From assembly GCA_048882325.1 (NCBI GenBank), contig JBHLRS010000004.1, forward strand, positions 19,762 to 83,761: a stretch of 64,000 nucleotides of DNA, read 5' to 3'. Each line of letters begins with the position of its first letter. Positions within the stretch are counted from its first letter, which is position 1. Origin of the DNA: Candidatus Thorarchaeota archaeon (GTDB lineage Archaea > Asgardarchaeota > Thorarchaeia > Thorarchaeales > Thorarchaeaceae). The position numbers were made by a program, and so were the translations under genes. Below the pieces are notes generated by a model. That model was not told where the DNA came from, did no database searches, and worked only from the letters and a program-made list of their open reading frames with translations. This document shows positions 26,829-30,953 of the stretch, in pieces.

Positions 26829-27509
26829 GTGGTCGTGACCTTGAGTAAATCCAATAATCAGCGAAGTCTTCTCAATGAGCTTGAGAGAACAGAGGGTGTT
26901 TTGCAGGATTTACTCTCGACTCTAGCAGGTTTGAATATGTTGTTAAAGCCAATAGAACAGGAAATGAAAGTCACTGATTTTGCTTCAAGTGGGGAGTATG
27001 TGCAAGGGGTGTCCAAGGGAGTCGTCTGTGTTCTTACAGGACTTATTCAGGGAGACCCACTGCAAAAGATCTTGGCTGAGAAAGGGAGGGGAAGAAACAT
27101 CCCAGCCCTCATCAAAGCTGGTGACCGTACTGAATCGCAAGTGACAGTTGAAAGTGTTGTAAATATGCTTCATGCGGAAGACCAGAAACAACGATTGGAA
27201 TTTGTGATTAATCTGAGGTGGGCAGAACTTCCATCTCCATTAGAGAGGAATAGGGTAGTTGTTAGAGGAGATAGGTTCGTTAGTGGAAAACAAATCATAT
27301 TGAGGAAATTAGAGAATGAGTTAGAAGAACTTGGTTTAGTGGTGACCGTCGACCAGGGTGAGTTTGGCGGAGGTCCATTAGTCTATGAGATTATAAGATC
27401 GTTCCGCGAAATCCATGATCTATTGGTAGCAGAGCTGACACTATCTCGCGAAGTTGTGGAAAATGATGCTCTTGTAATTCAGATGTTGAACATGCTAGCT
27501 TCTTTCTAG
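26829..27509 (+). CDS. Coiled-coil plus degenerate N-formylglutamate amidohydrolase (Zn-peptidase-fold)-like protein
   Basis: C-terminal LGLVVTVDQGEFGGGPL...LVAELTLSRE resembles the FGase C-terminus; metal ligands not evident. Confidence 0.45.
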   Translation: MVVTLSKSNNQRSLLNELERTEGVLQDLLSTLAGLNMLLKPIEQEMKVTDFASSGEYVQGVSKGVVCVLTGLIQGDPLQKILAEKGRGRNIPALIKAGDRTESQVTVESVVNMLHAEDQKQRLEFVINLRWAELPSPLERNRVVVRGDRFVSGKQIILRKLENELEELGLVVTVDQGEFGGGPLVYEIIRSFREIHDLLVAELTLSREVVENDALVIQMLNMLASF

Positions 27510-27518
27510 GTGTGTTTT

Positions 27519-30500
27519 ATGAGCTCTGAAAAAGAAGGTGAGATGCAACTACCATTTCCCCATGGAATAGAAGTCGAGCTCCAAGTGATTCGGAAAGACG
27601 GGACGTGGATTCGTGGTGAGGACATTCTTCAGGTATTCGACAAAATTGTTTCCAGTGCAAAGAGCTTGCTAGACAAGAAGATACGGGCATCATCTGTTGA
27701 ATCTGTAAAACGAAAGTACAAGCTGTCAGCGCAGACTGAGGAGGGTGAAAGAGGCTCGAGGATTGTAGCAACCTATGATAATCCTAATGGTGAGGCTACA
27801 GAGTATACTCTCTTAGGTCACGACCCCAATGTGACCAGCTTGACCTGGATACTTGAAGTTGCGACACCACCATGTACAACACTCGAAGAACTCGCTTGGT
27901 GGGTTCAGACATTAATAGCAATTTCACAAGAGTCTTTGCCAGTAGACTCGAAGGCGGTACTTGTCTCAACAGGATTGAATCCGACCCAAGAGTACCTGAG
28001 AAATCTCTCCTTTGGTGAACATCATCATATACTTGGTAAAAGTACTGACGAGAGGACAAAGATTGCAGTCTACAATATGCTACGAAATTTCCTTCCGCAC
28101 CTCATTGCACTTTCTGTCAACTCACCATTTGAGAACAAGAAGCCAAGCGATGAGGTTACTATATCTGAGGATGGTCGAGTACGTGCACCACGATGCAAGA
28201 GGTCTATTAGACTATTCAGAAACACGACACAGATGGGTCCAACAAATGAGTTTGAGTTGATTCCTTATCTTCGAGGTTCAGATAAAGAAGCTTTCGCGCG
28301 ACATGTCAACCGAAGCTACGCTCGCATGGTGGATATGTATCCGTTTACTGATTATGGAACAATCGAAGTGCGCGTCTTCGACACGCAGCTTTCGATCCCT
28401 AGGCGTATGGGATTGGCATTATTGCTACAAGCATTAGCCCTCAAAGCGAAAAGAATGGTTGAGAGAGGAGAAACAATACCGGATGTGGGACCAAAGACAC
28501 TTGCAGCCAACAGAGCTTCAGCCTTGTCTGCAGGACTATGGGGACCGTTTCGACCTAGTGAAAAGACGATGGAGTCAGACTACGTTAGAATTTACAATCA
28601 CCAAATCGCAGATGACGGTCTGATCAACGAAGGCAAGAAGAACAGGTTTCTTGGTGACGCAGTAGTTTCAATGTTGTATCTGATTAGAACTGAACTTGAA
28701 GATTTGAATGTCATTGAGAATCCATTCATGCAAGCTCTCCTTGTTTCAGTGTATGGAAGTGAATATGCTGAACCAAGAACAACTGGTGCGGATTTTCAGT
28801 TAGAGGTGTTTGCTAAATCGGACAACAATATGGTTGTGTTGATGAAACGATTGTCAGAGGTGACACGAGAATGCAGCACTAATTGGCTCTACGACCCGAT
28901 TCAAGGTTCTCCGCATTTACCCACATGGCTATGCTGGTGGAAAGGTCTTGAGCCTGAGATTGTGCACGATGCAGAGAGGGTCTTTGCAGGGCAAGATGTC
29001 CAATTCAATATTCTAGCTAGGAACTTTACAGGAAGGGCACTTGAGAGCATCACAATCACGTATTCAATTGAAGATTCAGAACGAAATGTTGTCGAGAATA
29101 ATGTCCTTACAATTCCAAGTATTCAGGATGGAGAGATACACGTTTCCCAAGTGTCATTTCAGACAAGAAAGAATATCCCGGCATACAACATCATTGCTGA
29201 AGTGGGTTTTGTTGGTAGAGTCATCAATCTTACCAGCACAATCAACATGTATTGGATGAAAGCTGAAATAAGACCTGGAACAACCACTCAGTTTGCTGAT
29301 GGTAAGACACCAGTCCTCTTCAATGGTCAGATTGAAACGAATTTTCCGACACAGACTACAGTTCAGTGTCAGGTCAGTGTTATTGCTCCTGGTATGGAGA
29401 AGGTTTTGGTATCCTCAAAAGACAATATTCTGGTTGATAACGGTGAAGCAACCAAACTTGACAACACGAAATTTCTGCCCATTCTTGTCCCATCAGATGC
29501 AGCTGATGGAGTTGAACGATGTATACTTCAGCTTAGTCTCTTTAATCAAGATGGGACCGAGATCGCAGAAGCCGTTTCCAAACCATTCTATGTTGGCTTT
29601 GTGAAGAGAGGACCACAAGTTGTTTTGAATACAGACTTAACAGGTACATACAAACTTGGTGACCTGATTTCAGGAGAAATCCTTGTCACTAACTTGGGAA
29701 AACGGATCCCAACTGACACACGGTTACTGCTAGAGTTCAAGAGCGACTCTGGTCGTACGCACCTCATAGAGGAGTTTCTTAAGGAGGAATTTACAGCTGG
29801 AGCAGTGGGATTTCATTGGAAGATACCCATATTGCTAATTGAAAGTTCAGCTGATAGAGTGGGTATCATCAAAGCATCACTCAGGCAGAAAGGACAAATC
29901 GTTGCTTCTGCAGAGTCTGAAAGACTCAGAATTGAGCAGGTCACAGCTAGGGTCAACATTGATTCACTCCGGGTTCCCAAACGTGCGCATATAGGAGGTA
30001 AGGTTTCAGGCTGGCTTAGAATTAGAAGGAACACAGAGAGTGGAGAACCTGCAATACTCAACATGACGTTCGTTTTTCCAGATGGTGATGAGCACCATGT
30101 GTTAAGCCAACCCGTCAAACAGAGTAAGAATTTATCAATCGCCTTTGGTCCGATAGTCATCCCTGCGCCTCGTGTGACTGCAAACCACAAAGGTGTAACA
30201 CTGGTGGCTACACTGAGCTATGCTGGAGTTGAGGTTGATAGGAGGTCAAGTGACATAGACCTCATGGGTGGGCCTCAGATGGATATGGCTCAGATTGAGT
30301 TTGTTGGTCTTCCCAATTTCACAGCGCCTGATGATCTAATTCAGCCAACAGTCCAAGTAATCAGTAATGTTGAGAAGAAGAAGTCGTGCATTATAACAGT
30401 TGAATTGGAATCAGTTGGTGGAAACAGCGAGCTCCTCACACAGGAGATAGAACTTGAGCCGGGGAAGGAACGTTTGTTCCCTGTGCCGGTGAGAATCCCA

Positions 30501-30953
30501 TTGAGTGCAGAGATGAGCACAGCACATCTTAGAGCTACACTCAGATGTGGTGACAGATCCTATGAGAAGAAACAGAGGTTCAAGATCAAAGCAATAGAAG
30601 AACCATTATTTAAGATCAATTTCTCAATCAGGAATGAGTCAGGAGATGAGATACCAGGACTAGTAGCAAGGTTGTCCACTGTGGATATCATTACAACGAT
30701 TGAAAGCGTTCGAGAGAAGATTGGAGACCTAACACTTAGTGTCCGTATCATGTCAAGACGTGATGTTGTCAAAGAGTTTGAAGTGCCACTGCCAGATCCT
30801 GATGCAAAGAAAAATGTAGTCAGAATCAATTGGATTACACCACCAATTGATGTTGTCACCGGATACTATGTAGATGCAGTAATTCTACAATCGGGACGTC
30901 CGTTGCCTTCGAGGGCAGTGGAACTCGTTAAACGACAGTTCACAGTGTATTGA
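27519..30953 (+). CDS. GCS2/YbdK-type carboxylate-amine ligase fused to ~6 Ig-like domains
   Basis: GIEVELQ, LEVATPP, FGEHHH, SVNSPF, GTIEVRVFD; beta-rich repeats over the last ~670 aa. Confidence 0.85.
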   Translation: MSSEKEGEMQLPFPHGIEVELQVIRKDGTWIRGEDILQVFDKIVSSAKSLLDKKIRASSVESVKRKYKLSAQTEEGERGSRIVATYDNPNGEATEYTLLGHDPNVTSLTWILEVATPPCTTLEELAWWVQTLIAISQESLPVDSKAVLVSTGLNPTQEYLRNLSFGEHHHILGKSTDERTKIAVYNMLRNFLPHLIALSVNSPFENKKPSDEVTISEDGRVRAPRCKRSIRLFRNTTQMGPTNEFELIPYLRGSDKEAFARHVNRSYARMVDMYPFTDYGTIEVRVFDTQLSIPRRMGLALLLQALALKAKRMVERGETIPDVGPKTLAANRASALSAGLWGPFRPSEKTMESDYVRIYNHQIADDGLINEGKKNRFLGDAVVSMLYLIRTELEDLNVIENPFMQALLVSVYGSEYAEPRTTGADFQLEVFAKSDNNMVVLMKRLSEVTRECSTNWLYDPIQGSPHLPTWLCWWKGLEPEIVHDAERVFAGQDVQFNILARNFTGRALESITITYSIEDSERNVVENNVLTIPSIQDGEIHVSQVSFQTRKNIPAYNIIAEVGFVGRVINLTSTINMYWMKAEIRPGTTTQFADGKTPVLFNGQIETNFPTQTTVQCQVSVIAPGMEKVLVSSKDNILVDNGEATKLDNTKFLPILVPSDAADGVERCILQLSLFNQDGTEIAEAVSKPFYVGFVKRGPQVVLNTDLTGTYKLGDLISGEILVTNLGKRIPTDTRLLLEFKSDSGRTHLIEEFLKEEFTAGAVGFHWKIPILLIESSADRVGIIKASLRQKGQIVASAESERLRIEQVTARVNIDSLRVPKRAHIGGKVSGWLRIRRNTESGEPAILNMTFVFPDGDEHHVLSQPVKQSKNLSIAFGPIVIPAPRVTANHKGVTLVATLSYAGVEVDRRSSDIDLMGGPQMDMAQIEFVGLPNFTAPDDLIQPTVQVISNVEKKKSCIITVELESVGGNSELLTQEIELEPGKERLFPVPVRIPLSAEMSTAHLRATLRCGDRSYEKKQRFKIKAIEEPLFKINFSIRNESGDEIPGLVARLSTVDIITTIESVREKIGDLTLSVRIMSRRDVVKEFEVPLPDPDAKKNVVRINWITPPIDVVTGYYVDAVILQSGRPLPSRAVELVKRQFTVY

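Follow-up and report, generated by a model that had tools for sequence, protein, structure and literature searches.

The gene described here, LIG, lies on the forward strand of a 64,000-nucleotide (nt) stretch of DNA from Candidatus Thorarchaeota archaeon (contig JBHLRS010000004.1, positions 19,762 to 83,761; the whole stretch is hereafter called the window). It encodes a divergent carboxylate-amine ligase domain followed by six immunoglobulin (Ig)-like beta-sandwiches. Judged from its sequence, LIG is very probably a catalytic enzyme, and its ligase domain defines a distinct small GCS2-like family, all of whose members identified to date are from Asgard archaea. On the basis of linkage, co-occurrence and one fusion, LIG belongs functionally with a metal hydrolase (famA) and a protein combining Cdc48N and vWA domains (famB). 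The reading that we prefer, and that we place slightly below an even chance, is that LIG is an active ATP-dependent amide-bond ligase and the writer of a writer/eraser module, with a macromolecular substrate (protein or peptide) as the probable target. The gene and its catalytic part are located as follows.

27510..30953 (+): LIG, the whole ligase-Ig gene; 1147 amino acids (aa) from GTG, or 1144 aa from the likely start, ATG 27519.
27537..28919 (+): ligase domain (aa 10-470), a divergent GCS2/YbdK-type carboxylate-amine ligase with ~100 extra residues and intact catalytic motifs.

Conservation was assessed in an alignment of 28 full-length LIG orthologues (A1) and in a second (A3), made up of 12 ligase domains from distantly related Asgard lineages. 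The motifs E21xE23, E116, H171xH173, N204-S205-P206 and E286xR288, which line up with those of YbdK, are invariant or nearly so in A1. E21, E23, E116, H171, H173, S205, E286 and R288 are invariant in both alignments, with N204 and P206 nearly so in A3, and the invariance of the catalytic residues spans orthologues at 30-87% identity. The intact ligase motifs (ExE, E, HxH, NSP, ExR) read in an initial annotation of this DNA are thus borne out.

Pfam GCS2 (PF04107) matches with 24.4 bits against a cut-off of 21, over only 45 residues (aa 165-209). NCBIfam TIGR02050 (YbdK) gives E 9e-18 and 64.7 bits, below its cut-off of 176.4, and the NCBIfam glutamate-cysteine ligase equivalog models give 25-48 bits, below cut-offs of 332-437. 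LIG carries the label 'glutamate-cysteine ligase' in the databases, and it is the sole GCS2-type gene of its genome. Searched against PDB sequences, the A3 profile found E. coli YbdK (1r8g) at E 1.2e-13; the matches comprised YbdK-type chains and a marginal GshAB (E 0.79), with no PafA or Dop. Similarly, a Pfam scan of LIG at E<=1 gave GCS2, MG2 and Mannosidase_ig only, and no match to Pup_ligase (PF03136).

The AlphaFold2 (AF2) model of LIG has a predicted local distance difference test score (pLDDT) of 71; its confidence is low over aa 204-248 and 416-478, although both of these segments are strongly conserved. The best structural match of aa 14-417 is the YbdK homologue 1tt4 from Salmonella (VIA Z 18.8, 285 aa aligned, root mean square deviation (rmsd) 4.5, 22% identity), followed by plant glutamate-cysteine ligase (GCL; 2gwc) at 16.5, Dop at 15.7, PafA at 14.3, GshAB at 13.8, GshA at 12.8 and glutamine synthetases (GS) at ~12. 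Sequence and fold are therefore nearer YbdK and plant GCL than PafA/Dop.

A search of 1.84 billion representative proteins with the whole of LIG returned 166 matches at E<=1e-3, including a tail of YbdK-like proteins of ~360 aa. The named members of the family come from metagenome-assembled genomes (MAGs) of Thor-, Odin-, Loki-, Heimdall- and Sif-archaea, and a ligase match is present in 178 of 301 Asgard genomes sampled. In a phylogeny made with FastTree only, and with long outgroup branches, 83 Asgard ligase domains including LIG split from 19 YbdK-like sequences with 100% support; within it the six-sandwich forms of the Thor families group with the Odin-type form. Of the phylogeny against YbdK, GshA and PafA proposed in the initial annotation, this covers the comparison with YbdK-like proteins, from which LIG stands apart.

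The ligase domain is found in varied company: alone (~460-600 aa), with tails of 970-1400 aa, behind a transmembrane (TM) anchor, behind Cdc48N-vWA, and at the C-terminus of giant proteins. P0250, a metagenome protein of 962 aa, is a natural fusion of Cdc48N-vWA (aa 8-411) and an Asgard ligase domain (aa 453-904). Five relatives of ~700-960 aa (P0241, P0262, P0267, P0269 and P0274) have an N-terminal TM helix, basic residues and a ~200-aa domain without known family; they are membrane-tethered forms, with the ligase presumably on the cytoplasmic side. The N-terminal extensions of ~250 aa in ~700-aa relatives, several of them with a TM helix, have no similarity to the Ig array or to the neighbouring proteins treated below (UP226, famA, famB, famC and an EAP30-like protein). 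Seven giants of 2232-3804 aa (P0218, P0220, P0231, P0232, P0233, P0237 and P0270) carry the ligase domain near the C-terminus; a Pfam scan of three giant ligase proteins gave no further significant domain, and one giant is labelled SbcCD-like ATPase by one source. LIG is unlikely to be a plain gamma-Glu-Cys ligase, because its scores fall far below the YbdK and GshA cut-offs, its branch is separate and fully supported, and its relatives have vWA, TM-anchor or giant extensions. The initial annotation had come to the same view.

The strongest partners of the ligase are encoded at some distance from it in the window, on the opposite strand.

38345..39616 (-): famB, Cdc48N-vWA protein of 423 aa; adjoins the ligase in other Asgard lineages and is fused to it in P0250.
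39705..41213 (-): famA, Amidohydro_2 metal hydrolase of 502 aa; its phyletic pattern is the same as that of the ligase.

Gene order was compared in 31 loci from the archaeal family of the window's genome (f1) and in 48 loci from nine families outside it; related genomes are not independent samples, so that the locus and genome counts given here overstate the support. Outside f1, famA is within the flanks of 46 of the 48 loci, being the next gene in 28, and famB is within the flanks of 17. In f1 genomes famA and the ligase are 8-12 kb apart on the same contig; in the window the distance from the LIG stop to the downstream partner genes is 7.4 kb for famB and 8.8 kb for famA. The ligase also occurs together with famA and famB genome by genome, and the ligase and famA are inherited together. 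The ligase is present in 66 and famA in 65 of 76 f1 genomes, each is present in 62 of 68 f9 genomes, and their tallies are alike in f7 (5/5), f19 (6/6), f27 (11/11) and f24 (4/7). Both are absent from f5 (0/28), f12 (0/19) and f14 (0/11), and also from six high-quality f1 genomes. This pattern spans families in which the ligase domains are only 30-40% identical. The Amidohydro_2 and Cdc48N-vWA proteins are thus stronger partners than the gene directly upstream of LIG, a larger pattern than the one originally noticed. No biosynthetic or transporter gene is linked to the ligase across lineages. The Opp peptide transporter, whose genes precede the ligase in the conserved f1 order (OppC / OppD / OppF / UP146 / UP226 / LIG / DUF92), was considered as a functional partner and rejected, the synteny being confined to f1.

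The gene directly upstream of LIG encodes a further candidate partner.

26829..27509 (+): UP226, of 226 aa when translation begins at the first GTG and of 224 aa in the databases.

A UP226-type gene is found directly upstream and on the same strand in 28 of 31 f1 loci (20/20 in the same genus, 8/11 in other f1 genera); in the remaining three (G236, G164 and G140) LIG comes directly after UP146, the gene that otherwise precedes UP226. Outside f1, a gene for a UP226-type domain is directly upstream of the ligase, again on the same strand, in 27 of 48 loci, where the domain either stands on its own (245-263 aa) or ends a larger protein of 380-660 aa (hmmsearch 5.5e-14, 2.1e-12 and 5.7e-5; hhalign E 1.7e-5). 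One such gene, famC, encoding ~600 aa upstream of the ligase in Loki-type loci, was tried as a detached Ig array and rejected: hhalign gave 25% probability over one sandwich, and its C-terminus is UP226-like instead.

In its model (pLDDT 87), UP226 consists of an N-terminal coiled-coil helix (aa 7-54) and an alpha/beta domain of the phosphorylase/hydrolase fold (aa 55-226). Residues 53-226 match the N-formylglutamate amidohydrolase (FGase) 2q7s with VIA Z 11.0 (164 aa, rmsd 3.3), a score that is tied with M42 aminopeptidase and pyroglutamyl peptidase I and has MTA nucleosidase within 1 Z; FGase 2odf (9.8), YndL (9.3) and PghP (9.2) also score. Foldseek ranks the poly-gamma-glutamate hydrolases YndL/PghP, the proteasome chaperone PbaA and FGase 2odf best. 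The modelled fold is accordingly best described as phosphorylase/hydrolase-like, with FGase/PghP as a reasonable nearest family, the fold alone being assignable. At sequence level UP226 has no Pfam or NCBIfam match at E<=1, its profile found only coiled-coil matches to the N-terminal helix among PDB sequences, and an ESM Atlas cluster with PF05013 in 15% of its members (score 0.87) is a lead only. No His is conserved (no column reaches at least 60% His in alignments A2 and A4), so UP226 has no zinc amidohydrolase site; across the wide family only D175 and the G181/G182 loop are conserved. The protein evolves fast (20-74% identity inside one archaeal family) and is probably a non-catalytic partner. 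A predicted complex of the ligase domain (A3) with UP226 (A2) scored 0.00, which is no evidence either way. The initial annotation had described an abutting upstream gene with an FGase/peptidase fold lacking its ligands and had asked for its pairing with the ligase to be checked; the description holds, and the pairing extends far beyond Thorarchaeota.

The remainder of LIG (aa 480-1147) is all-beta in the AF2 model and forms six sandwiches of ~110 aa, delimited from the model as follows.

28947..29279 (+): beta-sandwich 1 (aa 480-590), from DSSP of the model; VIA Z 10-12.8 to dextranase N-domain, Spo0M, ARRDC3 N-lobe, VPS26C and an alpha-2-macroglobulin (A2M) macroglobulin (MG) domain.
29280..29609 (+): beta-sandwich 2 (aa 591-700); taken jointly, sandwiches 1-2 give Z 12.4 against the C-terminal barrels of factor XIII.
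29610..29945 (+): beta-sandwich 3 (aa 701-812), with the lowest conservation among the sandwiches.
29946..30275 (+): beta-sandwich 4 (aa 813-922), with an invariant basic patch G-W-L-R-x-R-R-N (aa 834-841).
30276..30599 (+): beta-sandwich 5 (aa 923-1030), MG/CARDB-like; VIA Z ~11 to C3/C4 MG domains and the CARDB domain 3idu.
30600..30950 (+): beta-sandwich 6 (aa 1031-1147).

The top Foldseek matches of the tail are the MG arrays of alpha-2-macroglobulin, complement and CD109 (E about 1e-23 to 1e-16). The global TM-score is ~0.1, so the likeness to MG arrays holds domain by domain and not for their arrangement; single sandwiches match C3, C4 and A2M MG domains at VIA Z 10.6-11.2, and Pfam has a weak MG2 match within sandwich 1 (aa 493-534). 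Compared with each other, the six sandwiches have no significant sequence similarity. They repeat as fold, not as sequence, and the ~670 aa of repeated ~110-aa units described initially can be retained in the former sense only. Conservation is lower in the tail sandwiches (mean majority fraction 0.49-0.64) than in the ligase core (0.80). The parallel drawn with the Ig arrays of TRAPP subunits was not recovered, with no TRAPP subunit among the Foldseek matches listed or the 50 best VIA matches. The C-terminal FTVY was considered as a functional tail and rejected; it is conserved in f1 only and is the last beta strand. As originally noted, LIG has no TM helix or signal peptide, the highest 19-residue Kyte-Doolittle mean being 1.18. 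The lack of a hydrophobic segment or signal peptide, together with the requirement for ATP, places the protein in the cytoplasm.

From the motifs, fold, range, linkage, co-occurrence and fusion we infer what our preferred reading proposes on the reaction, on writer and eraser and on a macromolecular substrate. By analogy with YbdK, GCL, GS and PafA, LIG would use ATP/Mg to phosphorylate a carboxylate, most likely of glutamyl type, and would then transfer the acyl group to an amine, the acceptor or the donor being a protein or peptide and not a free metabolite. The Amidohydro_2 enzyme famA is the probable eraser, or may carry out the next step, and the Cdc48N-vWA docking protein famB is a probable adaptor or target. 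The UP226-type protein with its dead FGase/PghP fold, present in many lineages and here apparently on the same transcript just ahead of the ligase, would be a non-catalytic accessory that possibly binds the glutamyl-type moiety, and the six Ig-like sandwiches may form a rigid arm that holds partners or substrates. A macromolecular substrate is favoured because the ligase is found repeatedly on interaction scaffolds, its partners are a docking protein and a pseudo-enzyme, and no biosynthetic genes travel along. Likewise, tethering of the ligase to vWA domains, TM anchors, long tails and giants fits action on cellular structures better than action on free metabolites.

Several points weigh against this proposal. 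Pairs of ligase and hydrolase are also typical of small-molecule gamma-glutamylation (e.g. PuuA/PuuD), and the characterised members of Amidohydro_2 mostly act on small aromatic carboxylates. In Thorarchaeota the ligase and famA/famB are ~7 kb apart with unrelated genes between them. No small open reading frame (ORF) for a tag is conserved near the module across Asgard families. In G236, G164 and G140, and in one genome each of f22 and f27, the ligase is retained although the UP226 query found no UP226-type domain, so UP226 is not an obligatory subunit. Finally, the function put forward for LIG is a putative one, assigned from gene context. A wider proposal, which we consider possible and yet doubtful, is that ligase, Amidohydro_2 enzyme, Cdc48N-vWA protein and dead FGase-fold protein make up a new reversible protein-modification system, so far confined to Asgard archaea. 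A glutamyl-type amide would be written by the GS-fold ligase, erased by the TIM-barrel enzyme and read by vWA/MIDAS and the pseudo-hydrolase, on scaffolds (Ig arrays, Cdc48N-vWA) akin to the ones later employed by eukaryotes for trafficking and nutrient signalling.

The most serious alternative is a small-molecule pathway, which we regard as a distinct if lesser possibility. Here, LIG would join a free carboxylate (e.g. glutamate) to a free amine or amino acid, giving a gamma-glutamyl-type metabolite that the Amidohydro_2 enzyme processes or recycles, while the Ig, vWA and dead-hydrolase proteins organise or regulate the pathway. YbdK, plant GCL and GshA, the enzymes closest to LIG in sequence and structure, join small molecules, the characterised Amidohydro_2 enzymes likewise act on small molecules, and both the lack of a conserved tag gene nearby and the status of LIG as the only GCS2-type gene in the genome would agree with such a role. 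The distance of LIG from known ligases (scores far under the YbdK/GshA cut-offs; a long, fully supported branch from YbdK-like proteins) argues in the other direction, as do the recurrent fusion or linkage with vWA domains, Ig arrays, coiled coils and TM anchors and the fact that no other biosynthetic or transporter gene is linked across lineages, the Opp genes being neighbours in f1 only.

It is improbable that LIG, like PafA, attaches a dedicated small protein tag to target lysines and that the hydrolase takes it off. PafA/Dop have the fold in common with LIG (Z 14.3-15.7), the gene logic of writer and eraser would fit, and the Cdc48-N-type domain of famB recalls unfoldase adaptors. Against this, LIG is nearer YbdK than PafA and has no Pup_ligase match in Pfam at E<=1, the module has no small ORF conserved beside it across families, and the putative eraser is of an unrelated fold, whereas Dop is a paralogue of PafA. 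Similarly improbable is a role as metabolic sensor, in which the ligase domain would bind ATP and an amino acid within a Cdc48N-vWA signalling assembly and make no physiologically important product. The large scaffolding domains are compatible with this, as is the report of NPRL2-like longin proteins in Thor MAGs (preprint 10.1101/2020.10.19.343400), but every catalytic residue is strictly invariant even between deep lineages, which points to catalysis, and the co-inherited and apparently active hydrolase argues for turnover of a bond. Least likely of all is an ordinary gamma-glutamylcysteine ligase that has GshA/YbdK function and, as its haloarchaeal counterparts do, provides a low-molecular-weight thiol, with an Ig tail irrelevant to the chemistry: it has in its favour the database label, a GCS2 match above cut-off and matches of the same Pfam family in the control genome of Haloferax volcanii, and against it the equivalog scores, the shortness of the 45-residue Pfam match, and a linkage with hydrolase, vWA and dead peptidase-fold proteins that has no counterpart in thiol synthesis.

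In the window, LIG is the last of three co-oriented genes on the + strand that follow two Opp-type ABC ATPase genes. Two further features of this arrangement are listed here.

26319..26759 (+): UP146, 146 aa, helical and without known family; the first gene of the likely three-gene unit.
27508..27512 (+): AGGTG, a Shine-Dalgarno-like motif; it overlaps the stop codon of UP226 and precedes the ligase start, ATG 27519, by 6 nt.

The gap between UP146 and UP226 is 69 nt, and 9 nt separate the UP226 stop from ATG 27519, at which the 1144-aa database form of LIG (100% identical) also starts. Another Shine-Dalgarno-like motif, GAGGTGA, is placed 5 nt ahead of the UP146 ATG. Directly past the oppF stop (window 26255-26300), an inverted repeat, CACGGGTG ... 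CACCCGTG, is followed by a T-rich run, which looks like a terminator between the Opp genes and UP146, and 310 AT-rich nt are found 3' of LIG. With these short gaps, the AGGTG motif, the hairpin and T-run after oppF and the AT-rich stretch after LIG, the three genes look like one unit, and a single transcript is likely from the DNA alone; the position of AGGTG across the UP226 stop suggests coupled translation of UP226 and LIG. The sequencing runs listed as containing the stretch are four sediment-metagenome DNA runs, all from one study, with no RNA run among them. UP146 has no Pfam or NCBIfam match, and an ESM Atlas search gave leads only. It precedes LIG in 29 of the 31 loci from f1, is missing from every other lineage examined, is without similarity to the neighbour genes of other Asgard lineages, and occurs as a tandem duplicate in one Thor genus (L023:4181-4618 and 4751-5188).

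The interval from LIG to famB/famA holds genes for a DUF92 protein, a PfkB-like protein, a Band7/NfeD pair, an Rce1-like protease and a HEAT-repeat protein. The DUF92 membrane protein gene (31264-32232, +) has its own AT-rich upstream region and adjoins the 3' side of LIG in both families of the Thor order (f1 and f2) and in no other lineage. The gene for the Rce1-like CAAX protease (36248-37018, -) and the HEAT-repeat gene (37198-38340, +) are both in the region that separates the ligase unit from the vWA/hydrolase cluster. Beyond famA, the cluster continues with another ORF.

41342..43993 (+): ORF of 883 aa with a famA-like stretch, divergent from famA (tblastn of famA, window 42128-42550, E 1.2e-6).

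Its equivalent in a Thor relative, of 800 aa (L025:13016-15417), is a fusion of famA and famB. Three more genes follow in the window (44244-47663, -), two of which encode vWA proteins, the first of 406 aa and the second of 380 aa; the latter has a weak match to a transglutaminase C-terminal Ig-like domain. Elsewhere, in a single f2 genome, a protein of ~800 aa with a C-terminal EAP30/Vps36 domain of ESCRT-II type (Pfam E 3e-19) is encoded directly upstream of UP226-LIG. A 22%-identical homologue occupies the same position in an Odin-type (f6) locus (loci L032:2880-5297, +, and L033:9965-12349, -), and the genome of the window has a copy, 28% identical, on another contig (G000:C36:15499-17793).

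Among known prokaryotes, Asgard archaea stand closest to the eukaryotes, and multi-protein systems specific to their lineages are prime candidates for precursors of eukaryotic cell biology. The ligase family is present in more than half of the sampled genomes, is co-inherited with a hydrolase and a docking protein, and carries large interaction scaffolds. A reversible amide mark on proteins, if true, would be a third tagging chemistry of GS-fold/ATP-grasp style beside pupylation and tubulin-type glutamylation, and the first that is Asgard-specific. A small-molecule product would instead imply a new Asgard metabolite. Either reading is directly testable with recombinant protein and existing Asgard cultures.

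A literature search found no paper on the ligase or the module, and none that joins Asgard archaea with the ligase; a study that cites haloarchaeal GshA does no more for Asgard genomes than count their InterPro GshA matches (PMC7278568). In comparison with known systems, LIG has the GS-type fold and the motif set of the YbdK/GCS2 ligases (PF04107, TIGR02050; 1r8g, 1tt4, 2gwc, haloarchaeal GshA). It differs from these in the ~100 extra residues of its catalytic domain, in a 670-aa six-sandwich tail, in a range so far limited to Asgard archaea, and in its linked hydrolase, vWA and dead-peptidase genes. GS-fold ligases, peptidases and predicted peptide tagging were reportedly linked by Iyer et al. 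in Mol Biosyst in 2009. PafA/Dop (4bjr, 9cku) have the superfold in common with LIG and are a precedent for a GS-fold isopeptide writer paired with a remover; LIG, in contrast, has no sequence-level match to them and no Pup-like gene by its locus, and its putative eraser is a TIM-barrel amidohydrolase and not a paralogue of the ligase. FGase and PghP/YndL, with which UP226 has its fold in common, recognise glutamyl amides, the type of bond that a GCS2 ligase makes; UP226 is distinct in having neither a sequence-level match nor a zinc site, and in its additional N-terminal coiled-coil helix. The MG arrays of A2M, complement C3/C5 and CD109, CARDB domains and arrestin-type lobes are tandem beta-sandwiches of the same general type as the LIG tail. 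Unlike A2M and complement, the LIG tail is cytoplasmic and has no thioester, bait region or helical thioester-containing domain (TED), as judged from the Pfam scan and the all-beta model. Within the Asgard module of ligase, amidohydrolase and Cdc48N-vWA protein, LIG is the Thorarchaeota ligase, and it is set apart from the ligases of other carriers by its six-sandwich tail, by its distance of 7-12 kb from famA/famB and by a unit of its own with UP146 and UP226.

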